The notes: generated by a model not told the origin, from the sequence alone. A stretch of DNA of 64,000 nucleotides from Minisyncoccia bacterium (GCA_038207395.1 JBBQZW010000001.1:13530-77529); one strand, 5' to 3'; counted from the first letter of the stretch, positions 15,467 to 62,060 are shown. Made by a program: numbers and translations.

Positions 15467-15524
15467 ATAAGGAAAGTATACCTGTTAAGACGGACTACGT
15501 CAGCTTTTCTTACCTACGAAACTT

Positions 15525-24378: not shown

Positions 24379-25782
<1,404 letters not shown>

Positions 25783-25789
25783 CTAAAAG

Positions 25790-26698: not shown

Positions 26699-26727
26699 GG
26701 ATTTATGGTGCGAATACTTTTCTGAGC

Positions 26728-28275
26728 TTACGCAGCGCGCTCGGTGAACTTCGTCAGAGCAGCGCGTAGTGCTGCTTCTGTCTCTTCACCAATGTCTTTG
26801 GTAGAGCGAATCAGCTCAAGTGCTTCCTTTCCTTCACGCTCTAAGAATTCCTGGAGCTTGTTCTGTGCAGAACGCGTATCTTCAGGTGCAAATGCATCGA
26901 AGAATCCGTTGATGGCGGCAAAGATAACGGCAACCTCAACTTCAAATGGAAGCGGCTTACCCTGTACCTGCGTTAACACCTCCGTCATACGGCGCCCAGA
27001 ATCAATTTGTGCCTTAGTATCAGCATCAAGATCAGAGGCAAACTGCATGAAGGCTTCAAGTTCACGGAACTGCGCAAGGGTGAGCTTAATTTTTCCAGAC
27101 ACTTTCTTCATAGCTTTTGTCTGTGCGGAAGATCCCACACGAGACACAGAGATACCCACATCAATAGCAGGACGTAGTCCTTTGTTGAAGAGATCTGCCT
27201 GAAGATAAATCTGTCCGTCAGTGATTGAAATCACGTTCGTAGGAATGTAGGCAGATACGTCACCTTCCTGCGTTTCAATGATTGGAAGCGCAGTTAATGA
27301 GCCTCCGCCCTTTTCCTTAGAAAGTTTTGCTGCTCGCTCAAGAAGGCGTGAGTGCAAATAGAAAATGTCTCCAGGATATGCCTCGCGTCCAGGAGGGCGG
27401 CGAAGGAGAAGTGACATCTGACGATACGCAACAGCCTGCTTTGAAAGGTCGTCATATACCACGAGCGCGTCACGTCCTGCGTCCATGAAGAATTCTCCGA
27501 TGGTGGCTCCCGCGAATGGCGCGAGGAACTGGAACGCGGCAGGGCTTGATGCTGGAGCCGTAACCACAATCGTGTAGTCCATTGCTCCTGCTGCAGTAAG
27601 TTCAGCCACGATACGTGCCGTCTTTGATTCCTTCTGACCGATAGCGACATAAATACAGATTGGACGAGTTTCTGCTGGTTCTGATTTCTGGTTGAGAATA
27701 GTATCAATGGCGATAGCTGTCTTTCCCGTACCACGGTCTCCAATGATGAGCTCACGCTGACCGCGACCAATCGGAATCATCGCGTCCACTGCCTTTACTC
27801 CGGTATGAAGAGGAACGTTCACTGGAGCACGGTCAATAACACCATACGCCTCACGCTCGATTGGCTTCAGCTCTACATCTTTGAGTGCTCCCTTATCGTC
27901 AACGGGTTCACCAAGCGGATTAAGTACGCGCCCTATCAAAGATTCACCTACGGGGATGGAAAGTAGGCGATTAAGGCGACGCACCTGCATTCCTTCAAAC
28001 ACATCACTGGCCTCTCCTAGAATAACGGCACGAACGCCATCTTCCTCAAGGTTAAGCACCAGACCGTACACAGACTTCGTATCCTTGAGCGCATCCTCAA
28101 GACTTCGGTCGAACGTAGGATCGAAAAGCACCATCTCTGACATCACTGCGCCATCGAGTCCGTCAATTTCTGCAATACCGTCTCCGGTCTCGCGAACAAT
28201 ACCAATGCTTTCATCTACTCCTGTGGGAGTAAAACCTGCAATTTGTTCTTCGATTCGTTTAATGATGCTTTCCAT
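26728..28275 (-). CDS. atpA: F0F1 ATP synthase subunit alpha
   Basis: GDRGTGKT P-loop. Very strong similarity. Confidence 0.95.
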   Translation of the reverse strand: MESIIKRIEEQIAGFTPTGVDESIGIVRETGDGIAEIDGLDGAVMSEMVLFDPTFDRSLEDALKDTKSVYGLVLNLEEDGVRAVILGEASDVFEGMQVRRLNRLLSIPVGESLIGRVLNPLGEPVDDKGALKDVELKPIEREAYGVIDRAPVNVPLHTGVKAVDAMIPIGRGQRELIIGDRGTGKTAIAIDTILNQKSEPAETRPICIYVAIGQKESKTARIVAELTAAGAMDYTIVVTAPASSPAAFQFLAPFAGATIGEFFMDAGRDALVVYDDLSKQAVAYRQMSLLLRRPPGREAYPGDIFYLHSRLLERAAKLSKEKGGGSLTALPIIETQEGDVSAYIPTNVISITDGQIYLQADLFNKGLRPAIDVGISVSRVGSSAQTKAMKKVSGKIKLTLAQFRELEAFMQFASDLDADTKAQIDSGRRMTEVLTQVQGKPLPFEVEVAVIFAAINGFFDAFAPEDTRSAQNKLQEFLEREGKEALELIRSTKDIGEETEAALRAALTKFTERAA

Positions 28276-35696: not shown

Positions 35697-36644
35697 TTAC
35701 CGCTTCCGGCTTTCCAAGGCAAGGGCAATAATGTGCTCAAGAAATTGAGTGAAGGTTATGCCGACCGCAGCAAGGCTCTTTGGCATAGGGGACTCTGCCG
35801 TTAATTCCGGAAGACTGCTTGTTTCAAGGTAATATATTCCCTTTGGAGAAACGATAAATGAGGAGTGAGAATAGTGCCGAAGACCAAGTTCCTGATGTAT
35901 ACGCTTCGCCTGCTCCTGGAGCTCACCCATTATTTGTTTGGAAAACCGCCCAGGAGCAACAAGGCTAGCAACTGATTCATACCTTGAAGGTACGGTCTCC
36001 ACCGCTGGCAGTGTGTATAGGTATTCTCCACGAATATTCTCAACAACACTGACTGAGGCATGCGTACCTCGAATATATTCTTCAATAAGTGCCCCGCCGG
36101 CTCCTTCGTTAAAAAGTCCGGTGACTGCTTGGTGTACGGGCAAGTATCCGGCAGGTAAAGTCGTTCCTACCGAAGAACCCCAGCGAGGTGATTTAACGAC
36201 CACTGGTTGAGGGTACGTTCGAATAACTTCGTGGATAATTGGATCAACACCTTCTTCGGTTTCAATAAACGTATAGCGAGGTACCAGAAAGCCGAGGCTT
36301 CGTGCTTTTTCTTTTGCTAGTACCTTGTGAATTGAAACAAACGAAGCAAATGAGTCAGATCCTGCGTATGGAATTCCGTACCTTTCAAGAACTTTTTGCA
36401 CTTCCCCATCCTCTCCGTATATTCCGTGGAGTGCGATCACTGCAACGTCAATACTAGGCAGTACAACAGCTGGTGATGTTATAAGTCCACGCTCATGCCA
36501 AGTGCCTTCACGGTCAATGAAGATGTCGCGTACCGTGTATTTCTCACGCGGAAGTGCATTTAGTACGGCATGACCAGAGCGTAGCGAAATCTCATGCTTG
36601 TGAGAAGGACCACCACGAAGTACGCCTACGACTGTGCCTTGCAT
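35697..36644 (-). CDS. ddl: D-alanine--D-alanine ligase
   Basis: VGVLRGGPSHKHEISLRSG, HGIYGEDGEVQ..LE..GIPYAGS, and ATP-grasp C-terminus. Confidence 0.85.
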   Translation of the reverse strand: MQGTVVGVLRGGPSHKHEISLRSGHAVLNALPREKYTVRDIFIDREGTWHERGLITSPAVVLPSIDVAVIALHGIYGEDGEVQKVLERYGIPYAGSDSFASFVSIHKVLAKEKARSLGFLVPRYTFIETEEGVDPIIHEVIRTYPQPVVVKSPRWGSSVGTTLPAGYLPVHQAVTGLFNEGAGGALIEEYIRGTHASVSVVENIRGEYLYTLPAVETVPSRYESVASLVAPGRFSKQIMGELQEQAKRIHQELGLRHYSHSSFIVSPKGIYYLETSSLPELTAESPMPKSLAAVGITFTQFLEHIIALALESRKR

Positions 36645-45972: not shown

Positions 45973-46593
45973 ATGCGTATATCTAAAAGACTCTTCATTG
46001 CCGGCGTTTTTGCTTCAGTGATGACTGCTTCGCCGGCATTTGCCCGCGACAATGACAACAATTTCAAGCCTCAGATGGGGCGGATGTATTTTGTTGTCAG
46101 CGACACTGGCCTGCCAGGTCTCGCAGAAGCACGCCCAATCACGGGCGAGCAGTGGGACCAGCTCGCGTTTGTTGACCGTGGATGCCAGGGCCAGCTCAAG
46201 GCTCAGCGTCCAAGCGGTCTTTCCGAAGTGTTCCACACGGCTCTCGTGGGAGCACTCGGCGGTGGCCTTGGCTACGGCGCCGGTTACGGTGCTTCAGGCC
46301 TCGGCCCCGTCGGAAAGGTTGCCGTTCTCGGTAGCGTTGTCGGCGCAGTCGGTGGCATCGTCGGTGGCATCGATGGTCGTGCTCGCGCAAAGCGGTACGA
46401 CATGGGTCAATGCATGGTGCTCGTTGTGAGCATGCTTCAGCGTCGGGGTTTTCTGACCAACGTCGGCATTCTGATCAACTCCCATGCAGTCAACGGGAAA
46501 GGAATTTCTCGCCCCGACAATGCAGGGATGGCAGACGCCGCACCGACTGCTGCAAGCAGCACAAGTGACACCACGCCAGTAGTTATCCCGTAA
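45973..46593 (+). CDS. secreted glycine-zipper (Gly-zipper/Rick_17kDa-like) protein
   Basis: Signal peptide (ASPAFA). GALGGGLGYGAGYGASGLGPVGKVAVLGSVVGAVGGIVGGIDG glycine zipper. GC-rich Gly codons. Confidence 0.65.
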   Translation: MRISKRLFIAGVFASVMTASPAFARDNDNNFKPQMGRMYFVVSDTGLPGLAEARPITGEQWDQLAFVDRGCQGQLKAQRPSGLSEVFHTALVGALGGGLGYGAGYGASGLGPVGKVAVLGSVVGAVGGIVGGIDGRARAKRYDMGQCMVLVVSMLQRRGFLTNVGILINSHAVNGKGISRPDNAGMADAAPTAASSTSDTTPVVIP

Positions 46594-46616
46594 CACGGAT
46601 ACCTGGCACTAACACA

Positions 46617-46653
46617 AGGGCCGCACGATTTCATCGTGCGGCCCTTTTTCTTT
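46617..46653. terminator. bidirectional rho-independent terminator between convergent genes
   Basis: agggccgcacgatttcatcgtgcggccctttttc. Confidence 0.8.
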
Positions 46654-46670: not shown

Positions 46671-47219
46671 TTACTTTACGTCGAGAAGTTCAATATCAAA
46701 GATAAGTGTTGCGTTAGCAGGGATTACTCCGCCAACAGCTTGATTTCCGTACGCAAGGTCAGCAGGGATAATAAGTTGTCGCTTTCCTCCAACTTTCATA
46801 CCAGCAACACCAAGGTCCCATCCTTTGATAACTTGTCCTGCACCAAGTGCAAAACTAAATGGCTGACCGTGCTTTGCGCTTGCGTCAAAGACCGTTCCGT
46901 CAGGAAGCATTCCTACATAGTTAACGGTTACCGTTTTACCCGCAACCGCTTCTGCGCCGGTTCCGACTACGATATCTTTTCCGGCAAGCGTCGTTGGCAA
47001 TGGATCTGGAATCTGATTTGGAGCGGATGATGGTTCTTGATTCATAGTAGCTTTTTCAGCAGTCGTTGATGCGATCCCTTCCGTGGTCGTTGCATTTGTT
47101 TGTATGCCGGGAGTACTAAACGGCGCGAAAATGCGTGGACCAAAGAATAAAAGACCTAGGGCAACCACGACCGCAATAGCGACCGCAATACCCGTAGACG
47201 TTACCTGCGTTGTATTCAT
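46671..47219 (-). CDS. FKBP-type peptidyl-prolyl cis-trans isomerase (membrane-anchored or secreted)
   Basis: GKTVTVNYVGMLPDGTVFDAS...GAGQVIKGWDLGVAGMKVGGKRQLIIPADLAYG. Confidence 0.85.
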   Translation of the reverse strand: MNTTQVTSTGIAVAIAVVVALGLLFFGPRIFAPFSTPGIQTNATTTEGIASTTAEKATMNQEPSSAPNQIPDPLPTTLAGKDIVVGTGAEAVAGKTVTVNYVGMLPDGTVFDASAKHGQPFSFALGAGQVIKGWDLGVAGMKVGGKRQLIIPADLAYGNQAVGGVIPANATLIFDIELLDVK

Positions 47220-47228
47220 AGTATTGTA

Positions 47229-47546
47229 TTAATCCTGGCTTTCGCCGGTTGCGGCTAGTATATCATCTTGAAGTTCGTCTACGGTAGCTTCAATAATCTC
47301 GTCAGCGTTAGGCACCCGTTCTTCTATAAATGCCATTACCTGTTCTTCTGTTGGCTCAGTCTCAAGTAATGCATTAAAGGCGTCTCGTGACACATCATCC
47401 ATCTGTTCGATAATCCGGAGCAATGCCGTCTCATACGCAACATCATTTAACTCAGTGAGGAGTTCTTCCTGTTCTTCTATAGGGAGTGCACTCAGGTCCA
47501 TCGCTTTCTCGAGCACTTTTTTAGCTTCAGGGGAAATATCTTTCAT
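47229..47546 (-). CDS. small acidic hypothetical protein (resembles conserved Patescibacteria DUF proteins)
   Basis: 105 aa, very acidic, helical. 9- and 12-nt gaps to its neighbours. Confidence 0.5.
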   Translation of the reverse strand: MKDISPEAKKVLEKAMDLSALPIEEQEELLTELNDVAYETALLRIIEQMDDVSRDAFNALLETEPTEEQVMAFIEERVPNADEIIEATVDELQDDILAATGESQD

Positions 47547-47558
47547 ACGTATGATTAT

Positions 47559-50210
47559 TTATTTCTTATACACAAAGTCTACCTTCTTTTCAAATACATT
47601 GGGATCAATCTTGGGGAGTGGCGCTTCATTCATGAACTGAGTCGGCGGAATAAGAATTGGGGTCCCATCCTCAGTGGATGACCATTCGACAACTACCGGC
47701 TTACTAACTCCTGTCTCTAATATCTTTGATGTTACCTGGAATCTAATTGTTGAACCCGGATGAGTCTCAATATATTTTTGTGCTGCTGCATAGCGAGCAT
47801 CATCGTTAACTCCGCCAAATAAAGAAAGAATTTGATGACCTTTTTTATCTGTATATGAATACACGCTTGGCTCGTTGAGATTCAAGGTCAGCCCTCGAGG
47901 AGTAGTTAGTGTATTTGCTACAGATTCCAGTGGCGCTGAGGGAGCGGTATCTGGAACACTGGTCTCAGTATTCGAAGGTGCTAGTTCAGAAGCAAAGGAT
48001 TCGCTTGGTTCTGCTGCAAATCCTACAGATTCACTAGACAAAGGCTCAGTCACTTCCGTTGGAGGTATCGCTGGAGCAACTTCTGCAGTCGTCTCTAATG
48101 GTGATACTCCTGAAACTGGTGCACTACTTTCGGTAGAAGGCGCAGGTGATATTTCTTCTACTAACGGAGTGGGAGGTACTAGAGTCTCTCCTCCAGACGC
48201 CGAGGGTGTATCGACTAATTGCTCAACGCGCACCGGAGTTTGTTCAGCATTGAGAGAATGAATAGTAAATCCTTCTGCGTTTGGAGTGTTTTCTATGAAC
48301 AGCTGTGGTTTCCCGTTAACCGGGTCGTACCAAATATTTTGGTTGTCATCAACAAAAAACTGATCTCCCATCACGGTACGCATTCCCTTCTCTCCAAAGG
48401 CGTTTCCGACTTCGCGCGAAAGTGTATTTGGATTAGTTTCGAGAAAATGTTTTAAGCCAGGTGTTTGATGCGCAGAATCATACAAATTACTATTTTGAAT
48501 TGATGATTTTAATTCTTCAAATAACGTTCCTGTTCCTTCACCTGCCGTGTGTATCGTAGCTCCAACATTAAAATTAGCTGGTCCCGTACCTTCGATATTT
48601 GGAAGTCGTCCAGTACTCACTGATTCTCCCTGTAGTGTTTGCACGGTAGACGCTTTCAGCTCATGTACGGTATCTAGTGATTTTTGAACAGAGGGCAGAT
48701 GTCCAATCGAAGAATGACTGAGAATTTCTGCTGACGTAATTGATGCCGTACCAGCAACGGCAAGCGTGGTATACATTTCGACTTTCCTACGTGCAGCTTC
48801 ACGAGCTTGTGCATTGCCGCGTTCATAGAGTTTTGTTTCTTCGGCGAGCGCATCGGCATCACTAATCAATCCCGTAGTAGTATCGCGTAGCGTTCCAAGA
48901 AGAGCTTTTTGACGATTTGCACCAGCGGTAGTTGAGAATATCTTTCCAGCAAACGCACCAGCTGCAGCTCCTCCAAAAGTGCTGAGTGCGCCCCGTCCCA
49001 AGCGCCATGCAAGCATTGCTGCCCCTCCAAATCCGCCTGTCGCAACGGTCGCGATAAGTGCACCACCCAAAATGCGGGTAGAGCGTGCGTACTGCTCAGC
49101 AGCCTTTTTCTGATCAAAGTCTTCATTACTTCGCGAAATTGTTTTTGACTGTATGCGCGCGAGACCTTCACCAATTTTTTGTGTTCCGATATTCACTGCA
49201 CCCAGTATTCCAAGAGCACTATTTGTTCCCCACAAAAGCGCTTTGTTATGAAGTTTCTTACCCTTCTCATCAAGTGCTTCGCGCATTGCGGCTGTACGTG
49301 CATCCGCAGGACGAATTGCCGTATCACGAATACCTATAAACCGAGCCACTATCTTATCCTTAGTATCAGCTCCTTCGGCGACCTTCCCGAGATTTGTTCT
49401 CCAGGCAAGTCGGGCAGCATCATACTTCTCCTGTACTTCAGCAGGGATTTTTTTACCAAACGCGGTCCTTCCTATAGCTGAAGTTGAGGTGTGTAAATCA
49501 CGAACTGCATCAGCATATTCTTTCTCCGCTTCAAGCATTGCTACGCGAGAATCTTCAATTCCAAACTTCTTTGCGAATTCTTCAGCGCGCTGTTCACGTT
49601 CTATTCTTCGTCTTGAGACTCGCTCTTCCACTGATTCTTTTTTACTTTCTATATCTGCAGCGGGGAGTACTTCTGTGTTACCTTTTTCTGGAGCTTCCTG
49701 AACCTCACTAGTGGTAGGGATAGTCTCCACTGCTCCGCTAACAGTCTCATTAGGAGAAACTTCTTCTTGTTTTTCGTTTTCAATCTCTGCAACGGTTTCT
49801 ACAAATACCGCTTTTTGCTCTGCTGGCGTGAGTTTTCGTATGATATTTGATCGTATTTTCATCTCAAGCGCGTCTCCAAGTGGTCCGTTTATCGATTCAA
49901 TTTGATCTTCAAGTGAGTCAGCTAGCTTTTGCTTTTCAGCTACGTCTTCAGTGCTCATCATCTCCCGTGCTATCTCAACGGCTCGATTCTTTGCTTCCCG
50001 CAGTGCGCGTTTTTCATCTGAGATAAATACGTCTTCTTGTGTAGAGTACTCATTCCAGGCATCTAACTTTGATTCTAGTGCCTCTTCCAACTCTTCTGGT
50101 GATGCATGCACCAATCTAAGCGGCACCGCTTCAGGACGGTACAGCCGAGGAAGTTCTTCTTCAACGCTCTCTATTTTCCTTGGTGGAATTTCCCATGAGC
50201 CAATCTTCAT
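47559..50210 (-). CDS. large hypothetical protein (883 aa) with glycine-zipper hydrophobic segments and a Ser/Thr/Pro/Glu-rich linker
   Basis: N-terminal coiled-coil/acidic region. Central GGALIATVATGGFGGAAMLAWRLGRGALSTFGGAAAGAFAG. ST/P/E-rich low-complexity stretch at residues ~690-780. Globular C-terminal domain. Confidence 0.6.
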   Translation of the reverse strand: MKIGSWEIPPRKIESVEEELPRLYRPEAVPLRLVHASPEELEEALESKLDAWNEYSTQEDVFISDEKRALREAKNRAVEIAREMMSTEDVAEKQKLADSLEDQIESINGPLGDALEMKIRSNIIRKLTPAEQKAVFVETVAEIENEKQEEVSPNETVSGAVETIPTTSEVQEAPEKGNTEVLPAADIESKKESVEERVSRRRIEREQRAEEFAKKFGIEDSRVAMLEAEKEYADAVRDLHTSTSAIGRTAFGKKIPAEVQEKYDAARLAWRTNLGKVAEGADTKDKIVARFIGIRDTAIRPADARTAAMREALDEKGKKLHNKALLWGTNSALGILGAVNIGTQKIGEGLARIQSKTISRSNEDFDQKKAAEQYARSTRILGGALIATVATGGFGGAAMLAWRLGRGALSTFGGAAAGAFAGKIFSTTAGANRQKALLGTLRDTTTGLISDADALAEETKLYERGNAQAREAARRKVEMYTTLAVAGTASITSAEILSHSSIGHLPSVQKSLDTVHELKASTVQTLQGESVSTGRLPNIEGTGPANFNVGATIHTAGEGTGTLFEELKSSIQNSNLYDSAHQTPGLKHFLETNPNTLSREVGNAFGEKGMRTVMGDQFFVDDNQNIWYDPVNGKPQLFIENTPNAEGFTIHSLNAEQTPVRVEQLVDTPSASGGETLVPPTPLVEEISPAPSTESSAPVSGVSPLETTAEVAPAIPPTEVTEPLSSESVGFAAEPSESFASELAPSNTETSVPDTAPSAPLESVANTLTTPRGLTLNLNEPSVYSYTDKKGHQILSLFGGVNDDARYAAAQKYIETHPGSTIRFQVTSKILETGVSKPVVVEWSSTEDGTPILIPPTQFMNEAPLPKIDPNVFEKKVDFVYKK

Positions 50211-50221
50211 ATTATGTTCAA

Positions 50222-52975
50222 TTACGAAAGGTAACGCTGCTTAATAGTTGCTTCAACTGTAGCACGGTCACGTCCGTACGTGAGATACGAAAGTTGACGG
50301 AGATCATCAATTTGATCAGGGTTTCCAGCAGACAAGGTACGAGTTTTTATATTGAATGGTTTCTGCGGAACGCCATTTGCAAGAATCTTCACATACGCGT
50401 TTCGGTTTTCAATATTCGTAAAGTCCTTTGCTTCAAAGGTAGGGGTAAATTGCTTACCGAAGAACTCCCCATCATCCTGACCAACGCGGAACACACTCAT
50501 TGAGCCAACGTTTCCGAAGACCGCATCACGAATCTTTTCATCAATCTGTGCGAGGAACTGATGCGCAATGGTGAGAGAGAGTTTATACTTTCGGGCTTCA
50601 GACAAAATACCGGGAATCGAATCCGTGGTGATGTTTTGGAATTCGTCGATATACAAATAGAACGGTGCAAACGTACCTCGTGGATTATCCGCACGAGAAA
50701 GTGCGGCCATGAAGAGCTTTCCAACCAAGATGAGACCAAGTAAGTTTGCATTACGTTCTCCGAGGCGTCCTTTTGAGAGATTCACGAGCAGAATCTTTTT
50801 GTTGTCGATAATGTCTCGGAAATTAAATGACGATTCCTGCTGACCAATGATTGGACGCATGAAGTCATTTGCCGTGAAGTCATCAAACTTATTCGTAATA
50901 TACGGAACAATGTTTTCAAGTGACGCATCCCCTCCTGCCTTGCTCGCAATCTCGTTCCAGAACTGATTAACTATCGGGTTATGTGAACGCGAGAGTTTTA
51001 GATCACGGAATTCTTTGTTTGAAAGAACGCGCCCAATGTCCATCAGTGTTGATCCTGATGCCGGATCTTCCATTACTAGAAGTGTTGCATTACGGAAATA
51101 CTGCTCAAAGGCAGGGCCCATAGACTCAGGCACATCCCCATATAGGCGTCGGAAAATAGCCAAGAGCTCATTTACGATAAACGTTTTTTGTTCAGGATAG
51201 GCGGCATCGTATTCAAGAAGATTGAGTCCTATAGGGCGTGAAAGTTCTGCAGGATCGAAATAGATTACGTCTTCATAGCGTTCCGGCGGAATGGTTGCGA
51301 GAACATCCAGAATGTCGTTTCCATGCGGATCAATGAAACACACACCATTACCCGCTTTAATATCTTGCTCAATCAGTGTGCGAAGGAATCCAGATTTACC
51401 GGTACCAGTTTGTCCAATGACATACAGGTGACGCAAGCGATCTTCAGGAGAAATACGAACTTCGGTTGTTTGCCCTCGGAAGGTATTCGTTCCAAGGATA
51501 ATACCCTCGTTCGGGAGATCAACGGGTGCGGCAGCTCCCGTGAAGCGGGCTTGTTTGAGATGGGGTGACGACTCAATACCGTTAGGAGGAAAATGATAGA
51601 GCGTTGTGAGCTCATGAAGTGAAAGTGGAAGCGTTGCACTTTCTTCAAATAAGCGGAAACTAATGTCGTGAAAGAGACGGCGCAAACTTCCCTTTGAGAC
51701 ACGCTGCCAAACAATGCGGTTGCCGAGAGGATTCTCAAACTGATGGAATGATGACTCAAGCTCAGTAAGAATGTGTGCGGCTCGCTCAGGGTTCTGTGAA
51801 GAAACCGCAAAGCGCATGTTAACGGAAAGTATAGGAGCGCTAATCTTTTTTTCTACTTCTTCAATTTCTGTCTTATTAGACTGAAGTTCACGCCGGCGCG
51901 TACGATCAGCTTCCATTTTCTGATTATTCTTAAAAAATGTGGTGCTTAGTTCACGCACAGCTTCTCCGAAAAACGATTCGGGGATTCGTAAGGAATCGTG
52001 TTTATCTTCGCCCCTGCGAAGGGCTTCAAGGATTCTGCGCGTATGGGTTGTATGGCGATCTCCTTCTGGCTTAATCACTATCTGGAGTGATGCTCCTTCA
52101 TTCTCCGGAGAGATTTTTCCAAATGCATTTAAGAGCGTGTTTAATGGGTCATAATCAAAGCTCGTATAGTCCTTTATCGGAAGCGCTGCGGGCTGTGCCA
52201 GAGTTGCCACAGAAGCAACGCTCGTACCGTCTTGTACGAATACGTTGTAATCATTCGGCTGCACGGTAATGTGCGCGCCGGGGAAAATGGCTAAGATTTG
52301 TTTTTCAAAAAGATCGCAGCGGGAATTAGGTACGGCAGCGTAGAACATAAGGTGCGCCTGACCAACAGGAACGGCCAGTTCGAGTGTGAAATACGCAGGC
52401 TCACCAGTGTGTGCGTGTTCGAGTCCAAATAACCCAGAGTAGAACTGCTCCATCGCTGAAAGAAGTTCTTTGAGCGGCTTTGCTTTTTCTTGATCTGACG
52501 TTCCTGTTATCTCAGGAAGTGCGATCTCGTACATAGTCATGTGCAGCGCACGCCACGCAGGCTGCTTTTCGGTAAAACCTTGTACGGTCATTCCCTTTAC
52601 TAAATACTGCACAAGAAAACGATGGAAATCATCTTCAATATGAGGCGAGTTTAGATTCTCAAGTACGGAAAATGCATTCTTAATGCCCTTTGTTTCCATA
52701 ATGTCCCGGAGCTCCTGAATAGTTTCGTCATCACTTTCAGGATCAAGGTTAAGGGCGAGAGTCTTTGCTTCCTGCGAAGAAAGTATGTACGCAGGATCAA
52801 GCGCTGCATGACCATTCTCTCTATGGTGCGTGATACGCTCATGCACAATGTCTTCGCGTGGTCGCGATTCTTTGAGTGCCGCTAATTCTTGTTCTTTAAC
52901 GGCAATCTGTTCACGCAAAAATGCGAGTTCTTGCTCAGGAGTTGCGACTGTTGCTACAGGACCTTCAAATGCCAT
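50222..52975 (-). CDS. FtsK/HerA-clade P-loop ATPase of the VirB4/VirD4 (T4SS translocation ATPase) superfamily with ~500-aa N-terminal extension
   Basis: Walker A HLYVIGQTGTGKSG. Walker B YLYIDEFQNI. C-terminal KYKLSLTIAHQFLAQI...FGNVGSMSVFRVGQDD, like the TraG/VirD4/VirB4 Q-motif. 917 aa. Confidence 0.7.
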   Translation of the reverse strand: MAFEGPVATVATPEQELAFLREQIAVKEQELAALKESRPREDIVHERITHHRENGHAALDPAYILSSQEAKTLALNLDPESDDETIQELRDIMETKGIKNAFSVLENLNSPHIEDDFHRFLVQYLVKGMTVQGFTEKQPAWRALHMTMYEIALPEITGTSDQEKAKPLKELLSAMEQFYSGLFGLEHAHTGEPAYFTLELAVPVGQAHLMFYAAVPNSRCDLFEKQILAIFPGAHITVQPNDYNVFVQDGTSVASVATLAQPAALPIKDYTSFDYDPLNTLLNAFGKISPENEGASLQIVIKPEGDRHTTHTRRILEALRRGEDKHDSLRIPESFFGEAVRELSTTFFKNNQKMEADRTRRRELQSNKTEIEEVEKKISAPILSVNMRFAVSSQNPERAAHILTELESSFHQFENPLGNRIVWQRVSKGSLRRLFHDISFRLFEESATLPLSLHELTTLYHFPPNGIESSPHLKQARFTGAAAPVDLPNEGIILGTNTFRGQTTEVRISPEDRLRHLYVIGQTGTGKSGFLRTLIEQDIKAGNGVCFIDPHGNDILDVLATIPPERYEDVIYFDPAELSRPIGLNLLEYDAAYPEQKTFIVNELLAIFRRLYGDVPESMGPAFEQYFRNATLLVMEDPASGSTLMDIGRVLSNKEFRDLKLSRSHNPIVNQFWNEIASKAGGDASLENIVPYITNKFDDFTANDFMRPIIGQQESSFNFRDIIDNKKILLVNLSKGRLGERNANLLGLILVGKLFMAALSRADNPRGTFAPFYLYIDEFQNITTDSIPGILSEARKYKLSLTIAHQFLAQIDEKIRDAVFGNVGSMSVFRVGQDDGEFFGKQFTPTFEAKDFTNIENRNAYVKILANGVPQKPFNIKTRTLSAGNPDQIDDLRQLSYLTYGRDRATVEATIKQRYLS

Positions 52976-53033
52976 TACTAAAAGTATACTCTACGTTTTG
53001 TAAGTACTGCATCGTACAAACAATGTAAAGATG

Positions 53034-53633
53034 CTACGGAACGAACGTAACACTCGTAATACTGTTTCTGAGAGCGTAGACAGTACTTGAAGCCGTTGCT
53101 GGGAGTGGCTCTAGTATTTCAAAGGCGAAACAAGCGTCTCCTTTAAGTGTTCGGTAGCTAGTTACCTGTTGCGGATTATCCGTTCCTACTTTCTCAAATG
53201 AAAAATGCTGCCAGGTGGTACTGCCAACGATTAGTTCCTCCTGTTTTGTTTCTGCAGGATCTTTTTTAAGACAAGTAGCTTTTTCGCGAGAGTCAGTGCT
53301 TACTCCTACCAGAAGTACTCCCTGAGTGCTTTGAATTCGTACTATTGGAGTTCCTTTCCCGCTAGCGTTCGTACGCCAAGCTAAGTCATGCGCTGATGAA
53401 CTTGCAAACGAGTCAGTTACCACGCCATCTGCTGGGTAAAAGAAAGAAAATCCATACACACCATTGGTGTATATAGAAAGTGATGACGGATCTGTTTCCT
53501 GGACTGACACTTCCACAGGAGTGGTGACGGGCGCAGGAGATAGTGCTTTGATACGAAAAAGTACGAGGACAGTCGCAATGAGAATGAGTAGAGTAAGAAT
53601 GCCGCCAAGTACCATCCATCCGAAACGTGTCAT
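53034..53633 (-). CDS. membrane-anchored hypothetical protein (N-terminal TM, extracytoplasmic beta-rich domain)
   Basis: 199 aa. One N-terminal TM helix. Confidence 0.5.
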   Translation of the reverse strand: MTRFGWMVLGGILTLLILIATVLVLFRIKALSPAPVTTPVEVSVQETDPSSLSIYTNGVYGFSFFYPADGVVTDSFASSSAHDLAWRTNASGKGTPIVRIQSTQGVLLVGVSTDSREKATCLKKDPAETKQEELIVGSTTWQHFSFEKVGTDNPQQVTSYRTLKGDACFAFEILEPLPATASSTVYALRNSITSVTFVP

Positions 53634-53685
53634 ATATCTAGTATATACCGGAGTACTGCGTGTTGAGTCATGTAAGGTATCGCAA

Positions 53686-54153
53686 TTACGACTCTAATGA
53701 AGTGAGTACGAAACGATTTTCATAGAAGTATCCAGTGACCGTTATGGCTTCCCCATCACTAATCTTTGGATATCCGCTACTGCCGCTATATCCCGGAACG
53801 CACGGAAGATCTCCTGCACCTGGGGCACATCCGCGAGCATCAAGAAAGGTAAGCTGCTTTGTTGCTACTCTATTTGATTCGTCCATATACCTAATAAAGG
53901 GAACGGCTGGAATGCCTGACGAATAATCGAGTACCGCAGTACCGTGGATTGTGTATAGCTCAGTGTCGTAAGACGATTCCGTGCCAATGGATTGTGGAAT
54001 TTCAACTCTGGCCGTAGGTACTGAGTCTGCTACTGAAGCTGTAATAGCGAGCGTAGGTATGGGGGTATCACGAAGCAATAGAATGCTACCAACAATCACA
54101 CAAACACCAAATATAAGCACACCTACCACTTTCATTACCAAAGGGTACGCCAC
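53686..54153 (-). CDS. membrane-anchored hypothetical protein
   Basis: 155 aa. One N-terminal TM helix. Confidence 0.5.
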   Translation of the reverse strand: MAYPLVMKVVGVLIFGVCVIVGSILLLRDTPIPTLAITASVADSVPTARVEIPQSIGTESSYDTELYTIHGTAVLDYSSGIPAVPFIRYMDESNRVATKQLTFLDARGCAPGAGDLPCVPGYSGSSGYPKISDGEAITVTGYFYENRFVLTSLES

Positions 54154-54185
54154 CCTACCTAAAGCAACGATGAAGTGTTACTTCC

Positions 54186-55868
54186 CTACCCTTCGTACAC
54201 CGTGCGTGCGAGCCGAAGATCATCAAAGTTCACCGTACCTTTAAGAAGCTCATATATAGGTGCAAGGTGCTCACTGCTATGCGCACGGAACGCATCATGA
54301 ATACGGGGTAATTCAGTACGAAGAGAATCAGGAATATGCGCTTGAACAAGCGATCGTGGAACCGTACCTGCCTGTACTAATTTTTCTATATGTCCGCATA
54401 TAGTCCCAAACGTAAGCTTTCTTTCAGCGGCAATTTCATGGGGATTCATACATGATTCAAGTAGTCGCTGAGTTTCTGCGTACGTGCTTACTTTCGCAGA
54501 CTTCTTCTTCGGAACAAGCGCTTTCGCATCAGTACCGTCATGCCATTCTCCTCCGGAAGCAGTTACAAAATTCTTTTCAAGTTCAGTACGCTCTCCAGAT
54601 GCATCGAGTGCCGCAAATGCCGCAACCGCATCGTCTGAAGCATCACGAAATACTTCATCGTGAGCAACCACGAGCGGATGTACGATAAGAGCCTGCTCGC
54701 TCCATCCCAATATATGAAGTCCTGCAAGAGACCGCACGCGCGAAAGAGCCACATACCCCTGCCCGTATTCAAATGCGCGTGAAAGATCTATAGCGGCTGC
54801 GTCCATACTCATTCCTTGACTCTTATGCACCGTAATAGCCCACGCAAGACGTAGCGGGACCTGGGTGACCGTCGCACGTGCCTTTCCTCCTTCTTCCACT
54901 GCCCATTCAACGGCAGCTACAGTGATGGTTCGTCCGTCATGCGTTTCAATAACAGGATTGTTCGTGCCTCGCTCGAAAGAAATAACCGTGCCGAGCGTAC
55001 CGTTAGCCATACCAAGCGCAGGAATATTTTTTGTACCCATAACAACCGCTCCTTCTTTAAGTACGAGCACCTCAGGCGAAAGACACCCTCTCTTTAGTGC
55101 TTCAATGAGTGGAGGTGCGCCTGTTCCATTCATAACGTATTTCTTAGGCCCGCCCGGAAGCTGGTCAAGCTTTTGTTGATTCACTCGGTCTACGTCTACG
55201 TTATGCGTATACAAGCGTGGCACATCTTCATCAAATCCTTCCATTTCAACTTCGCGCCCTAAAATAACTGAAACGGTTGTGGGGTCAGGGTCAGCAGCAC
55301 GAATAGAGGAGAGTACTGAAAGGAACCGAGGGTCATCTTGGCGATGCTGCTCGGTCAGGTAGCACACTAACGGATGGAGGTCTTCCCACACGCTTGATTC
55401 AAAGGCAAAGGGTGGTCGATTCGAACCGCGTCCAATAGGGGGTAGTTGAAAAAAGTCACCCACAAGCACAACCTGTATTCCCCCAAACGGTAAGTCATTT
55501 CGTTTTACCTCCTTACAAACCATATCAACCATGGCGAGTACGGGAGCAGAAAGCATTGAGATCTCATCAATGATGAGCGTCGTGGTTTTCTGAATACGCC
55601 TTGAGACATGCTCCTTAGAAGCAATCTGATCAACATCCATAGCGGATAGTGATTCACGGATACCAATTCCACTCCAGGCATGAATGGTCATGCCGTGAAT
55701 GTGCGTTGCGGCAATACCTGTAGAGGCAGTAACCGCTGGCTCCACACCGGTGCTTCGAAGCCACGCAACAAACTGGTTGATAGTGTGTGTTTTCCCACTA
55801 CCGGGTTCACCGGTAAGAAATACATTCGCGCCTGTTTTGAGTATCGTAAGAGCTTCTGCTTGAGTCAT
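54186..55868 (-). CDS. Pif1/RecD-family ATP-dependent DNA helicase with C-terminal helix-turn-helix domain
   Basis: FLTGEPGSGKTH Walker A, LIIDEISML Walker B, FFQLPPI, and a C-terminal HTH-like region typical of bacterial Pif1-like helicases. Confidence 0.8.
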   Translation of the reverse strand: MTQAEALTILKTGANVFLTGEPGSGKTHTINQFVAWLRSTGVEPAVTASTGIAATHIHGMTIHAWSGIGIRESLSAMDVDQIASKEHVSRRIQKTTTLIIDEISMLSAPVLAMVDMVCKEVKRNDLPFGGIQVVLVGDFFQLPPIGRGSNRPPFAFESSVWEDLHPLVCYLTEQHRQDDPRFLSVLSSIRAADPDPTTVSVILGREVEMEGFDEDVPRLYTHNVDVDRVNQQKLDQLPGGPKKYVMNGTGAPPLIEALKRGCLSPEVLVLKEGAVVMGTKNIPALGMANGTLGTVISFERGTNNPVIETHDGRTITVAAVEWAVEEGGKARATVTQVPLRLAWAITVHKSQGMSMDAAAIDLSRAFEYGQGYVALSRVRSLAGLHILGWSEQALIVHPLVVAHDEVFRDASDDAVAAFAALDASGERTELEKNFVTASGGEWHDGTDAKALVPKKKSAKVSTYAETQRLLESCMNPHEIAAERKLTFGTICGHIEKLVQAGTVPRSLVQAHIPDSLRTELPRIHDAFRAHSSEHLAPIYELLKGTVNFDDLRLARTVYEG

Positions 55869-55925
55869 TCTTTCTATTGTACCAGTGCACGTGTTTGAAG
55901 CTATGATTCCCGCACCCCGAGCTTT

Positions 55926-56972
55926 CTACGGCTTTATATTTTCTTTATCCTCTACGCTAGTTTGAGGCATTTTATCATTCGGTGGGACTGATTCCGTGGT
56001 ACTTGCTACAGGGGTAGTACTCGCTGTTGTTGAAGCGGTAGGAAGGAACTTAGCAAGGAGTGCTGTGTGGCGGCCAAGTATAGACGTAATCTCTCTTGCG
56101 CGTACTGCGTCCTGAGTTTCTATATGTGCAGCAGAACGTATCTCAAGCACCTCTTTAGGTGAATGTTGAGGTTCTCGTATTTCAGAATTTTCAGTGAGTG
56201 CCGTAGTTACTTTTGCTCGGGCAGGAGCTGAGTTGGACGAGACTGTAGCTGCAGCACGTGAGGGTGCAATGGAGTCTTCTAGCGCAAGACGCTTTGAGAC
56301 AATACCTTTTTGGTGAACTTTAACTTTTTCAATAAGCTGGGCGAGAGAGCCTTTAGTCTCAAGATTTGCCGGCTCTTCTGAAGACGTGCCAGCATCATAG
56401 TGCGCCGCAATCACCCCTAGAATCTGCTCATGAGCCGTAAGGCGCGCCTCTAGATCAGACTGCACTGAGAGTGAGCCAGTGGTATCACCTGAACGCTCAA
56501 GCTCAGCAGCATGCGTCTCAGTAGCTGATATATGTGCGGTGAGATTTGTAGCGAGTTCAGTTTGTACTGATGGCGTAAGTTTATTTATCGCTGCTAGCTG
56601 TGCTGCTTCCTCTAGGCGGCGTTCTGCGAGGATCGCATTCCATGCCGCTTTGCCGCGCTCACTTGGCACAAGCGCTGTCTGGAGAGGTTCGGTAAATCCA
56701 ACCTTAACTGAATATAAAATGTCGCCCGGTAACGTGTTTTCTGCCGCGTATGCAGTACCTCCAATGCTCACAATCAAAAGGAGTGCAATACTAAGACCGC
56801 TATATATACGCAGGCTAAACGCACTAAAGAAGGGTGACGGTATGGAAATAGGTGCCGGTCGTGGGGCATGCAATTCAGCATACGCAATAAGCTCGGCACG
56901 CATGCGAGTTTTCGCCTCCTCAGGAAGGCGTACGGTATTCAAATGGGTTAGTTGTTCTTCGAGGTTTGTCAT
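55926..56972 (-). CDS. putative membrane-spanning anti-sigma factor
   Basis: 4-nt ATGA overlap with the ECF sigma gene. Single TM at ~residue 50-75. Extracytoplasmic Ala/Ser/Thr-rich domain. Confidence 0.55.
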   Translation of the reverse strand: MTNLEEQLTHLNTVRLPEEAKTRMRAELIAYAELHAPRPAPISIPSPFFSAFSLRIYSGLSIALLLIVSIGGTAYAAENTLPGDILYSVKVGFTEPLQTALVPSERGKAAWNAILAERRLEEAAQLAAINKLTPSVQTELATNLTAHISATETHAAELERSGDTTGSLSVQSDLEARLTAHEQILGVIAAHYDAGTSSEEPANLETKGSLAQLIEKVKVHQKGIVSKRLALEDSIAPSRAAATVSSNSAPARAKVTTALTENSEIREPQHSPKEVLEIRSAAHIETQDAVRAREITSILGRHTALLAKFLPTASTTASTTPVASTTESVPPNDKMPQTSVEDKENIKP

Positions 56973-57469
56973 ATGCGTAGTCGGTCTTGTAGTTTCTTTA
57001 TCGCGCGGTTTATCCGAACAGATACTGCATTAGGCGTTTCATTCGTTAGTGCAGCGATTTCTGCGGGAGTCCAGCCTTCAGTATACCGAAGGAGAATTGC
57101 TTCACGAGAGGGTTCATTGAGCGTTTCCACTGCTCGAAGAATTTCTCCATATGAAGCGGACTTTTCAATATCAACTCCTGCGCTTCCCTCAACCTCCATT
57201 CCTTCGTCCTGAAGCTGATCTAAGGATTCTTCTTTTTTCTTTCGATACCAGTCCGTGATGCGGTTGCGGGCGATGGTAAAGAGGAGTGCGCGAGGATACG
57301 TTATCTCAGTACCGACCCGAACTGACTGCCAGTATCGAGTAAAAACGTCCTGCACAATATCCTGTGCTCGTTCAGGATCAGATACCTTGAACAAACAGAA
57401 TCGATACAACTCATCGGCATACAGATCGTATGCTTCAATGAACGACGTGGTGAGGGGTTCGGGTTCCAT
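56969..57469 (-). CDS. RNA polymerase ECF-type sigma-70 family factor
   Basis: Region 2 (DIVQDVFTRYW) and region 4 HTH (TEGWTPAEIAALTNETPNAVSVRINRAIKKL). Confidence 0.85.
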   Translation of the reverse strand: MEPEPLTTSFIEAYDLYADELYRFCLFKVSDPERAQDIVQDVFTRYWQSVRVGTEITYPRALLFTIARNRITDWYRKKKEESLDQLQDEGMEVEGSAGVDIEKSASYGEILRAVETLNEPSREAILLRYTEGWTPAEIAALTNETPNAVSVRINRAIKKLQDRLRI

Positions 57470-57768
57470 CTATAGAGACGGCACAGAGTGCCATTCCTTA
57501 CGTAGCGAATTCGCCTAAGGTACCCCTAAGTATACCGTATGAAAAGACTGTGGGTAGAGAAAATATCCTCTGCACATAGGCGCTTATGAGTGAGCTATGG
57601 TAAACGCACCAATCATACTTGCGAGCATGAGTGCGGGAAGGGCGATAGCGAGATCGTATTTGATACTTCGTAGCATATAAGAGTTCGTTAAGGTAGATAA
57701 AAGAATGAGTATTCATTCACGTAACTAGGTAACGTTGAATACTATAGTTCCAGGTCCATGAAGTATCG

Positions 57769-60749: not shown

Positions 60750-61043
60750 ATGCAAGAACACTATTTAATTAACGCGCGCATTCGTATACTTAGGGATTCA
60801 CCCAAGAACATTGATTTTCATATTCGTACAGGAGATTATTTCCTGTACGTTGCTACGCTCGTGGGAGCGCTTGAGGAGGCACTCGGACGCGGAGAATACG
60901 CCACACATACTGAGCAGGAACGCGCTATCGCACGTGAACTTCGCAACGACTTACGGTACGTTCATGCGAACTATGAAATACACTCACGTTCACTCGCTGA
61001 TATTCAGATGATTCGCCCGGCGGGTAATCTACTCTCCCGCTAA
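60750..61043 (+). CDS. hypothetical protein (weak call)
   Basis: ORF from an internal ATG (MQEHYL...). Overlaps the dnaX 3' end by 15 nt. No domain recognised. Confidence 0.25.
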   Translation: MQEHYLINARIRILRDSPKNIDFHIRTGDYFLYVATLVGALEEALGRGEYATHTEQERAIARELRNDLRYVHANYEIHSRSLADIQMIRPAGNLLSR

Positions 61044-62060
61044 CTCATACACGGCGAGCTCAAGGGGAAGCGCGGGGATAGGTGCAAAGCGCATACGGGA
61101 TGCAGCGTCGAGGAGAACCGCCAAGGTGCGGTGCGTAATCTTTGATTCTTTATTCTCTGCAATCTCCTTGATACCTGCGACGTTCTCCATTCCCTGCTCT
61201 TCAGTTAGTTCTTTCCGGAGTTCAGGAGCATGACGGAAGAGCAGCACGGTGCGTACATACTCAAGGACGAGTGAGAGATAGAGAGGGTATTCAATATTCT
61301 CGTGTGAAAGTGACGTTATAACGCTAAGTGCCTGTTCAGTATTTCCTTCGGAAAGTGCGTGGACAAAGGACTCCACGAGGGCGCGCCTTGGCGCGCCCGT
61401 ACTCTTTTCGGTCTCCGTAAGCGTAATCTTTTTGTCAGGCGAAGCGGCACACACTTTCTCAAGAATGGAGAGTGCGTCACGGTATGAGCCATCCGCTAGA
61501 AGCGCAATAAGATCACTGGCTCCCTGTTCAATTGAAAACCCTTCCTTCTGTGCAACGGTAGAAATAATTGAAACAAGACCTTCTCGGCTTGGTTTTTTGA
61601 ACGTAAAGACTTGGCATCGAGACTGTACCGTTTCAGGAACTTTCTCAAGTTCTGTGGTAGCTAATATGAAAATAGCGTGCGCAGGAGGCTCTTCGAGCGT
61701 CTTTAGAAAGGCATTCCACGCACTCTTTGAAAGCATATGTGCCTCATCCAGAATGTATATTTTATACTTGGACTCAAAGGGAAGCGTGTATACGTTTTCC
61801 GTAAGCTGGCGAATATCCTCCACTGTATTATTTGATGCTGCATCTATTTCGTATATGTCTTTGCCGGAGCTTCCAAGCTCACGTGCAAAGATACGCGCCA
61901 CTGACGTCTTGCCAAGCCCCCGTGAGCCTGCAAACAAATACGCATGCCCCGGAGTTTCTGAGCGTATTTGCTCTCCTAGTGGACGGGTAACTTGCTCCTG
62001 TCCAGCAACGTCAGCAAAGCTTCCAGGGCGATACGCGCGGTACAAAGACTGATGAGCCAT
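61029..62060 (-). CDS. dnaX: DNA polymerase III subunit gamma/tau (short form, no zinc module)
   Basis: AYLFAGSRGLGKTS P-loop, ILDEAHML, SRCQVF sensor-2 region. 343 aa. Confidence 0.85.
   Translation of the reverse strand: MAHQSLYRAYRPGSFADVAGQEQVTRPLGEQIRSETPGHAYLFAGSRGLGKTSVARIFARELGSSGKDIYEIDAASNNTVEDIRQLTENVYTLPFESKYKIYILDEAHMLSKSAWNAFLKTLEEPPAHAIFILATTELEKVPETVQSRCQVFTFKKPSREGLVSIISTVAQKEGFSIEQGASDLIALLADGSYRDALSILEKVCAASPDKKITLTETEKSTGAPRRALVESFVHALSEGNTEQALSVITSLSHENIEYPLYLSLVLEYVRTVLLFRHAPELRKELTEEQGMENVAGIKEIAENKESKITHRTLAVLLDAASRMRFAPIPALPLELAVYELAGE

Follow-up and report, generated by a model that had tools for sequence, protein, structure and literature searches.

Positions 46671–57469 of a 64,000-nucleotide stretch of DNA from a Minisyncoccia bacterium (GCA_038207395.1, JBBQZW010000001.1:13530-77529; hereafter the window) carry nine open reading frames (ORFs) on the minus strand, one of which encodes a 917-aa ATPase. 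We favor a model, with a probability of roughly 0.6, in which this 10.8-kb run is made up of several independent units and the ATPase is an orphan motor, derived from a type IV secretion system (T4SS), that has a small entourage and docks at the envelope. The unit that survives our analysis comprises the ATPase, a large membrane protein of 883 aa and a small DUF5663 protein, with the adjoining FKBP less certain. An earlier reading of the sequence (the original prediction) had described the run as one operon, led by its own extracytoplasmic function (ECF) sigma factor and encoding a minimal DNA-translocation or surface machine. The ATPase, its parts and its downstream neighbors are laid out as follows.

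50222–52975, minus strand: ATPase gene, 917 aa, with Pfam matches to DUF87 and TraG-D_C in the C-terminal half
52571–52975, minus strand: ATPase residues 1–135, helical N-terminal extension and putative fused small subunit, from a profile match to small upstream ORFs
51491–52570, minus strand: ATPase residues ∼136–495, DUF8128 core with the predicted fold of a VirB4-type N-terminal domain (AlphaFold2 model and Foldseek)
50222–51508, minus strand: ATPase residues 490–917, P-loop domain of the VirD4/TraD/VirB4 clade, with Walker A at 521–528, Walker B at 774–778 and AHQ at 804–806
52983–52988, minus strand: TATACT −10 box preceding the ATPase start codon by 13 nt; predicted leaderless-type promoter
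47559–50210, minus strand: fast-evolving membrane/surface protein, 883 aa, starting 11 nt after the ATPase gene and with no −10 box of its own
47229–47546, minus strand: small acidic DUF5663 protein, 105 aa, 29% Asp and Glu (Pfam 5.8e-5)
46671–47219, minus strand: membrane-anchored FKBP-type peptidyl-prolyl isomerase, 182 aa (FKBP_C 1e-34), with a transmembrane (TM) segment at residues 3–36

As the original prediction had read, the C-terminal half of the ATPase carries Walker A, Walker B and a Q-motif, and it matches DUF87 and TraG-D_C. The N-terminal half, in contrast, is not the unrecognized extension described there. A precomputed match on the identical protein, and on nearly all listed homologs, places it in the Pfam family DUF8128 (PF26449). 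A usable model of this half was obtained with AlphaFold2 (AF2) for residues 1–495, from 139 sequences of 35%–82% identity, and has a soluble α/β fold with a predicted local distance difference test (pLDDT) score of 85. The 14 best Foldseek matches to the model are all TrwK/VirB4 chains, and the search returned no TrwB, FtsK or HerA structures. Because the query excluded the P-loop domain, and structures of these other families were not matched, we take the TrwK match to be to the N-terminal domain fold specific to VirB4; in the model, the N-terminal half is a VirB4-type N-terminal domain of ∼330 residues. A Kyte-Doolittle scan finds no hydrophobic segment in residues 1–740 of the ATPase, and thus no TM domain of the kind found at the N terminus of type IV coupling proteins (T4CPs).

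The N-terminal extension has a different distribution from the rest of the protein. A hidden Markov model (HMM) of residues 1–135, searched against the 490 ORFs of loci encoding a short form of the ATPase, matches only the small ORF directly upstream of the ATPase gene, at nearly full length (4.7e-7 in locus L092, 6.5e-7 in L088 and 1e-3 in L090), and in the protein of Paceibacteria a small soluble partner is therefore fused to the ATPase. In other classes of the candidate phyla radiation (CPR), this N-terminal piece of ∼130 residues is, as judged from the profile matches, a separate small gene just upstream. Some members of the ATPase family start at approximately residue 140.

This build invites comparison with the VirB4 ATPases (TrwK of plasmid R388, PDB 7o42/8rtd), in which an N-terminal docking domain is likewise followed, at the C terminus, by a P-loop motor belonging to the VirB4/VirD4 clade. 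The small partner of the DUF8128 ATPase, encoded directly upstream and fused in some lineages, resembles VirB3-VirB4 in position. In contrast to the VirB4 systems, the fused partner is soluble rather than membrane embedded, the DUF8128 gene is a fixed chromosomal core gene located by housekeeping operons, and the C-terminal domain scores better with coupling-protein profiles than with those of VirB4.

The Walker A (G521–K527), Walker B (D777–E778) and AHQ (804–806) motifs of the motor are invariant across 24 diverse homologs. TraD and VirD4-like profiles match 22–24 of these proteins, and VirB4 profiles match 6–10 (TIGR00929 in 6, best 1.4e-5; VirB4_plasma in 10), all with scores far below the curated cut-offs. 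The window ATPase itself matches TraD_SXT (2.4e-10, 39.5 bits against a cut-off of 366) and a CD1115 VirD4-like profile over residues 492–829 (3.4e-9, 36 bits against a cut-off of 250), both far below threshold; it matches no VirB4 profile, let alone at the curated VirB4 threshold. Its best PDB sequence matches are TrwB and DotL. Precomputed matches to T4SS-DNA_transf also occur among the homologs, as do matches to TrwB_AAD_bind, which are faint in close homologs and unmarked in short-form ones. By sequence, the motor appears nearer to the T4CPs (VirD4/TraD) than to VirB4.

The family is large. More than 1,600 homologs were found, the best 120 of which are full length, 68%–100% identical and, where named, assigned to Parcubacteria, Paceibacterota or Patescibacteria. 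A scan of one genome per species gives at least 575 ATPase loci, and a library-wide search with residues 1–490 gives 922 cluster representatives, with full-length members of 800–1,120 aa. A search started from one short form adds Gracilibacteria, Peregrinibacteria, Portnoybacteria and Pacebacteria to the groups that have the family. In the loci seen, the ATPase is always away from the canonical T4SS cluster.

We compared gene neighborhoods in a close set of 80 related genomes (ATPase 61%–79% identical), in which the nine proteins were mapped and all ORFs clustered, and in a distant set of 12 loci, five from Paceibacteria (ATPase 47%–54% identical) and seven from other classes. In the close set, downstream counts cover the 52 loci, and upstream counts the 48 loci, with enough DNA on that side. 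Downstream of the ATPase, FKBP is found in 52/52 loci, tgt in 51/52, DUF5663 in 34/52 and the 883-aa family in 32/52, and the gene directly 3′ of the ATPase is an ORF of at least 440 aa in 39 of the 52 and FKBP in 7. FKBP and tgt are equally constant, so the linkage of FKBP is no stronger than general collinearity. Upstream, p199 is found in 24/48 loci, the sigma and anti-sigma genes in 21/48 each, Pif1 in 10/48 and p155 in 9/48. Cluster representatives identify the neighbors in the 80 close loci as housekeeping genes. Conservation of synteny, by which the original prediction was to stand or fall, is therefore lacking for most of the genes, which are unlinked from the ATPase in relatives. Of the proposed nine-gene machine, the upstream part (at most 24/48 relatives and none of the 12 distant loci) falls away, and the association of the ATPase with a membrane/surface protein stands.

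In the five distant Paceibacteria, the ATPase gene ends the ribosomal spc operon, in the order L15-secY-adk-(pyrH)-map-ATPase-ndk, and none of the other eight proteins is encoded within 8 kb, save DUF5663 in L082. The other classes have two recurrent contexts: dnaE-aspS-ATPase-(3D + PG_binding_1 protein), and small ORF-ATPase-conserved ∼200-aa protein-GtrA-dnaX. Across all 12 distant loci, none of the eight partners lies near the ATPase, with the exception of DUF5663 in two. A DUF5663 profile finds the corresponding ORFs next to the ATPase in L082 (4e-27) and three genes upstream of it in L088 (2.7e-14). DUF5663 proteins form a family of ∼100-aa acidic helical proteins, and their recurrence near the ATPase in different gene orders is the best hint in these sequences of a real partnership. 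In L088, the order is DUF5663, a 393-aa protein, a 139-aa ORF and the ATPase; three genes further on come a T4SS pilin and an amidase/SpoIID protein. VirB3, VirB6, VirB8, pilin and hydrolase genes are absent from the vicinity of the ATPase in the 80 close and 11 of the 12 distant loci, L088 being the exception.

The 883-aa protein has an acidic coiled-coil N-terminal part, Gly/Ala-rich and weakly hydrophobic stretches at residues ∼380–430 and 480–500, a Ser/Thr/Pro/Glu-rich region at ∼660–770 and a conserved C-terminal domain. The Gly-rich membrane segments and the Ser/Thr/Pro/Glu-rich spacer had been noted before and are seen here as well, the former showing in the hydropathy scan only as a weak Gly/Ala-rich segment. 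Neither the protein nor eight homologs match any Pfam family, and the protein matches no NCBIfam model. Its family spans 490–1,360 aa, with a mean column identity of 0.1–0.37, and shares a common build: a long acidic coiled-coil N-terminal part, Gly/Ala-rich membrane segments, proline-rich spacers and a short conserved C-terminal domain. The N-terminal part is inferred to lie inside and the C-terminal part outside. The 393-aa protein of L088 (L088:6337-7518), between DUF5663 and the ATPase, has an acidic coiled-coil N-terminal part followed by C-terminal Gly-zipper TM segments and is built like the N-terminal half of the 883-aa protein. BLASTP between the two is not significant, and the likeness is therefore one of architecture only.

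The motor domain raises the question of whether the ATPase simply serves as coupling protein to the canonical T4SS of Patescibacteria, the genes of which lie elsewhere (in Paceibacteria, near dnaA), with its own neighbors irrelevant. T4CPs such as VirD4, TrwB, TraD and DotL provide the best sequence matches for the DUF8128 motor, which shares TraG-D_C, TrwB_AAD_bind and T4SS-DNA_transf matches with them and scores best with TraD and VirD4-like profiles, and in L088 the ATPase lies three genes from the T4SS pilin and amidase. T4CPs are also often encoded away from virB4: a recent survey reports 5,713 VirD4-like homologs in 2,918 Patescibacteria genomes, about two per genome, of which 148 are near virB4, and its authors do not exclude exaptation (Quinonero-Coronel et al., 2025; PMC12102498). 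These homologs far from virB4 are very probably the same gene set as DUF8128, at least in part, although the portions of that survey available to us give no domain architecture, VirB4-like N-terminal domain, fusion/fission or neighborhood for them. On the other hand, the DUF8128 ATPase does not have the N-terminal TM domain that defines T4CPs and has instead the VirB4-type N-terminal domain of ∼330 residues and the helical extension of ∼130 residues. DUF8128 loci have no relaxase or oriT context, and the position of the gene is fixed by housekeeping operons (secY-adk-map, dnaE-aspS) across lineages. The same survey places the canonical virB4 of Paceibacteria near dnaA/dnaN, a context unlike all loci here, and reports that the Southlakia T4SS is essential whereas its T4CP homolog, which may or may not be a DUF8128 protein, is not (PMC12102498). 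The Southlakia T4SS has been described as having no recognizable coupling protein (Wang et al., PMC10633639). We consider a coupling-protein role for this ATPase unlikely. No paper on DUF8128 or PF26449 was found in the literature searched.

A second alternative is that the ATPase is a DNA translocase, serving chromosome segregation or DNA uptake for recombination or nucleotide salvage, rather than an envelope secretion motor. It belongs to the FtsK/HerA superfamily and has weak matches to CedB and CedD, the archaeal DNA-import ATPases, and genes of DNA or nucleotide metabolism (adk, pyrH, ndk, purC-like, the pyrimidine operon, dnaE, dnaX, Pif1, tgt) recur beside it. The likeness to the Ced ATPases and HerA is, however, confined to ∼60 residues around the P loop at Walker A, scores far below cut-offs and is accompanied here by no NurA or Ced partner. 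Much of the neighbor pattern is generic, because adk and map normally belong to the spc operon, and other neighbors are envelope genes (3D + PG_binding protein, amidase, pilin, GtrA, PMT and FKBP). There is no evidence of a DNA-binding domain in the ATPase, and Southlakia tolerates deletion of comEC (PMC12857230). A role of this kind seems to us distinctly improbable.

Nor do we think it at all likely that there is no functional module, with the ATPase acting alone or with unlinked partners and the 883-aa protein, DUF5663 and FKBP being merely inherited neighbors within one order of Paceibacteria. Several observations nonetheless weigh on that side or against the model we favor. The region from the ATPase through FKBP to tgt-uvrB-HK-uvrA is collinear in the 80 close relatives, so that adjacency could reflect inherited order, and in eight close loci the ATPase is followed directly by FKBP with no big protein between. 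An HMM of the 883-aa family finds only a low-complexity match in the 12 distant loci, leaving the family undetectable near the ATPase there, 10 of these loci have no DUF5663 nearby, and FKBP seemingly has its own promoter. The assignment of the C-terminal domain between T4CP and VirB4 is drawn from sub-threshold profile scores. The arrangement of the ATPase halves and a possible all-α insertion rest on a full-length AF2 model (12 close homologs) that is too poor to use (pLDDT 53); the helical stretch at ∼595–720, between Walker A and Walker B, appears in this low-confidence model only. The promoter calls for all units are motif based, and the partnerships of the ATPase with the 883-aa protein and with DUF5663 are putative. 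Against mere inheritance stand the short gaps (11–12 nt) that precede the 883-aa and DUF5663 genes and contain nothing resembling a promoter box, the renewed proximity of DUF5663 to the ATPase in two phylogenetically remote settings where the gene order differs, and the L088 protein of similar build (acidic coiled coil and Gly-zipper TM segments) between DUF5663 and the ATPase.

We therefore return to the model of an orphan motor with a small entourage. By analogy with other ATPases of the VirB4/VirD4 clade, the DUF8128 protein would assemble into an oligomer, probably a hexamer, and work as a motor on the cytoplasmic side of the membrane. Having no anchor of its own, it would dock through its VirB4-like N-terminal domain onto cytoplasmic parts of membrane partners; in R388 structures, as cited in PMC12857230, the VirB4 N-terminal domain binds the tails of membrane subunits. 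In this lineage the likeliest partner, or cargo, is most plausibly the 883-aa protein, with docking on its long acidic N-terminal region, and DUF5663 may act as an adaptor or chaperone. ATP would be spent on moving or assembling an envelope-associated macromolecule, and the cargo could be protein or DNA.

The remaining features of the run and its immediate flank are as follows.

57477–57501, minus strand: ECF-type promoter motif, GTAAGG-N15-CGTC, 8 nt before the sigma ATG
56969–57469, minus strand: ECF sigma factor, 166 aa, with Pfam Sigma70_r2 and Sigma70_r4_2; TIGR02937 88.7 bits against a cut-off of 42.9
55926–56972, minus strand: anti-sigma-like single-pass membrane protein, 348 aa, Pfam DUF5667, TM segment at residues 48–78
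54186–55868, minus strand: Pif1/RecD-family superfamily 1B (SF1B) helicase with C-terminal HTH_40; Pfam PIF1 2.4e-35, Pif1_2B, HTH_40 2.1e-14
53686–54153, minus strand: p155, N-terminally anchored protein with no family match and one N-terminal hydrophobic anchor (hydropathy scan)
53034–53633, minus strand: p199, N-terminally anchored, putatively extracytoplasmic protein; PsbP_2 match at 1.9e-4, weak and below cut-off
46616–46646, not strand-specific: GC-rich hairpin, putative bidirectional terminator between FKBP and the convergent gene 45973–46593, with a 14-bp stem, 9 GC pairs and T-tracts

The gene layout is as first described. ORF coordinates give nine co-directional minus-strand genes, and the gaps computed from them are, in gene order after the sigma/anti-sigma overlap, 57, 32, 52, 58, 11, 12 and 9 nt, within the 9–58 nt first given. 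The sigma and anti-sigma ORFs share 4 nt (ATGA), read straight from the sequence, a layout consistent with the translational coupling proposed for them. The domain readings also hold for the ECF sigma factor, for the anti-sigma-like DUF5667 protein with one TM segment, for the helicase with its C-terminal helix-turn-helix, for the two N-terminally anchored membrane proteins p155 and p199, and for the small acidic protein (DUF5663) and the FKBP with its N-terminal TM anchor. Co-directional packing of nine genes is, however, ordinary for this genome, since the window from 13.8 to 63.9 kb consists mostly of minus-strand housekeeping genes.

The sigma/anti-sigma pair probably forms a self-contained unit. 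The sigma factor has regions 2 and 4, it adjoins a membrane anti-sigma protein whose sigma binding is putative and which is always paired with sigma in relatives, and it is preceded by a promoter motif of autoregulatory type. The promoter search called for upstream of 57469 was productive: the motif GTAAG-N16-CGTC at 57477–57501 is conserved before sigma in ∼20 related loci, ending 8–10 nt short of the ATG, and is consistent with an autoregulatory, near-leaderless promoter. Regions 2 and 4, an overlapping gene for an anti-sigma protein with one TM segment, and an autoregulatory −35/−10 motif with CGTC in the −10 element are all shared with group-typical ECF pairs; unlike these, the anti-sigma protein here has the CPR-typical DUF5667 and no recognized ZAS or RsiV domain. 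The motif has three matches in the window, against a chance expectation of ∼1. Within the module it occurs only at sigma; one of the other matches is a single site that is probably fortuitous. The only other well-placed copy (15489–15513, minus strand, GTAAGA-N16-CGTC) lies 42 kb away, 22 nt before a GH18 + PG_binding_1 gene (13865–15466, minus strand) that also has a TATACT box at −14, and this gene is a candidate member of the regulon of the module's sigma factor.

The other units appear to have promoters of a different kind. A TATACT box lies −12 to −16 from the ATPase start in ∼75 of 79 loci, and p199 is preceded by one at −12 in 21 of 23 loci (53640–53645 in the window), in both cases irrespective of the upstream gene. 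Pif1 has a −10-like TACAAT box at 55876–55881 (−13). A scan of the whole window finds −10 boxes before Pif1, p199, the ATPase and several unrelated genes, and none before the anti-sigma, p155, 883-aa or DUF5663 genes. FKBP, which usually has a TATACT box 14–40 nt upstream, probably also has its own promoter here, GATATACT at 47257–47262, inside the 3′ end of the DUF5663 gene. TATACT or TATAAT boxes at a fixed 12–14 nt before the ATG mark a subset of genes elsewhere in the window (for example 12504, 13865–15466, 20446–21432, 35697–36644 and 61029–62060), which hints that many mRNAs of this genome are leaderless or nearly so.

At the level of motifs, the run thus resolves into the putative units [sigma, anti-sigma], [Pif1, p155], [p199], [ATPase, 883-aa, DUF5663, possibly FKBP] and [FKBP]. 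The first would be the autoregulated ECF pair with its own GTAAG-N16-CGTC promoter. In the second, p155 has no −10 box of its own and is therefore probably transcribed with the Pif1-type helicase. The third would be p199, an anchored exoprotein. The fourth, the only evolutionarily sticky one, is that of the soluble DUF8128 ATPase, probably co-transcribed with the genes for the 883-aa envelope protein and DUF5663, which follow at 11–12-nt spacing. The fifth would be the membrane-anchored FKBP, probably with its own promoter too.

A single ECF-driven operon encoding one minimal DNA-translocation or surface machine does have points in its favor: tight co-directional packing with the sigma/anti-sigma overlap, membrane proteins side by side with a translocase-type ATPase, an order (sigma, anti-sigma … p155, p199 … ATPase) that is kept in ∼20 close relatives, and an ECF motif before p199 in two relatives (L016 and L018 only). 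Yet one promoter with none internal is not what the motifs depict, with the ECF motif confined to sigma within the module and independent, conserved −10 boxes at p199 and the ATPase. The parts are also separable: six loci have a class-I lysyl-tRNA synthetase (LysRS) in place of Pif1, between anti-sigma and p155/p199, in other relatives p199 is separated from the ATPase by purC-like, VIT, cation-antiporter or holin-like genes, and the more distant half of the close set is marked by DsbA-like, ZIP and DedA genes, or by an operon for pyrimidine biosynthesis. With the upstream genes in 9–24 of 48 relatives and 0 of 12 distant loci, synteny largely refutes the single operon, which we regard as highly improbable. 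The clustering also returned 110-aa “ATPase-like” ORFs, which were set aside as a linkage artifact and are holin-IV/DUF360-like membrane proteins.

All helicase domain scores are above cut-offs (PIF1 122.6 bits, Pif1_2B 29.1 bits, HTH_40 54 bits), identifying the protein as an SF1B helicase, and its TraA matches are confined to the helicase part. In p199, two cysteines, C121 and C168, are invariant in the alignment. PDB profile searches with p199 and DUF5663 were uninformative, the hits being the TM helix of a pilin (E 0.21) and various others at E ≥ 0.1.

The window comes from the chromosome of one of the Patescibacteria (CPR), a Paceibacteria member of Parcubacteria/Kaiserbacteria type, and ATPase homologs carry the names Parcubacteria, Paceibacterota or Kaiserbacteria. 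Around the module lie housekeeping genes (leuS, ATP synthase, cytochrome bd, photolyase, uvrA/B/C, tgt, dnaX and two tRNAs), and the GC content of the window is even. As the original prediction had stated, a Pfam scan of 29 window ORFs (the nine of the module and 20 others) finds no VirB6, VirB8, VirB9 or VirB10, pilin or relaxase; VirB3/VirB6/VirB8-type channel genes are likewise absent, as are integrase domains. A mobile element was considered and rejected in view of the uniform GC content, the housekeeping flanks and the absence of integrase or relaxase. Also rejected was a defense island, in keeping with the earlier view of the locus: PADLOC gives no specific defense-system match for the nine module proteins, with generic P-loop/RecD-type matches (mad8, HerA, RecD-like) and zero matches for the other seven.

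Further genes recur beside the ATPase in relatives. A conserved soluble protein of 196–220 aa, with the motif PANYASKSKLVEGD, follows the short-form ATPase in L090:10863-11525, L091:10585-11217 and L092:10718-11308, before GtrA-like and dnaX genes, and has no homolog in the window. In Gracilibacteria/Peregrinibacteria, a secreted 3D-domain + PG_binding_1 protein follows the ATPase (L086:10681-11934, L087:10595-11854 and L089:10709-12190), and a Peptidase_M23 + SLH protein is found near it; both are of cell-wall remodeling type. Nucleotide-metabolism genes stand beside the DUF8128 ATPase in unrelated arrangements, which may be chance or a functional hint: purC-like in L004, L005, L009, L012, L013, L018, L021, L025, L026, L032 and L048, pyrimidine genes in L033–L035, L037, L038, L042 and L044, and adk, pyrH and ndk in L081–L085. 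Many metagenome-assembled genome records with a Paceibacteria-type locus are filed as “Candidatus Saccharibacteria” (L001, L008, L016–L018, L021 and others) and one as “Bacillota bacterium”; these are probably mislabeled or mis-binned.

Several features elsewhere in the window merit mention. The convergent gene 45973–46593 (plus strand), which shares the terminator hairpin with FKBP, encodes a Gly-rich protein of 206 aa that begins with a signal-like segment and matches no Pfam family; a few relatives (L003, L031, L055, L069) have the gene in the same place. A 72-aa ORF (57498–57716, minus strand) between sigma and a divergent pseudouridine synthase gene overlaps the sigma promoter. None of the 80 relatives has a counterpart of this ORF, which is unlikely to be a gene. 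The leucyl-tRNA synthetase (17510–20425, minus strand, 971 aa) has a NUDIX match (1.1e-9) at residues 425–524, just past the editing domain, an unusual insertion. Cytochrome bd oxidase subunit I (9060–11287, plus strand), with one adjoining ORF, and ATP synthase α/β-type subunits (24379–28275, minus strand) are encoded in the window, whereas the lineage is usually described as having no respiratory chain.

Patescibacteria, which live attached to hosts, account for much of bacterial diversity. No T4SS before theirs had been shown to be essential for the survival of its owner (PMC12857230). Our analysis removes a tempting but wrong annotation from this locus, be it as conjugative element, competence locus, defense island or sigma-controlled nine-gene machine. 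It indicates that at least one VirD4-like family unlinked to a T4SS is a core chromosomal gene with a hybrid VirB4/VirD4 build, a fused or separate small partner and a few recurrent neighbors, and the locus supplies concrete partner candidates in DUF5663 and the Gly-zipper membrane protein. Much more tentatively, and as a rather speculative extension, DUF8128 may be a third deep VirB4/VirD4 lineage, with a VirB4 docking domain, a T4CP-like motor and a soluble small partner, that powers a CPR-specific envelope machine independent of the canonical T4SS; in Paceibacteria this machine would include a hypervariable surface protein and DUF5663 and might, for example, export or present host-contact proteins of these episymbionts. 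The locus also offers a candidate intermediate form for the divergence of VirB4 and the coupling proteins.

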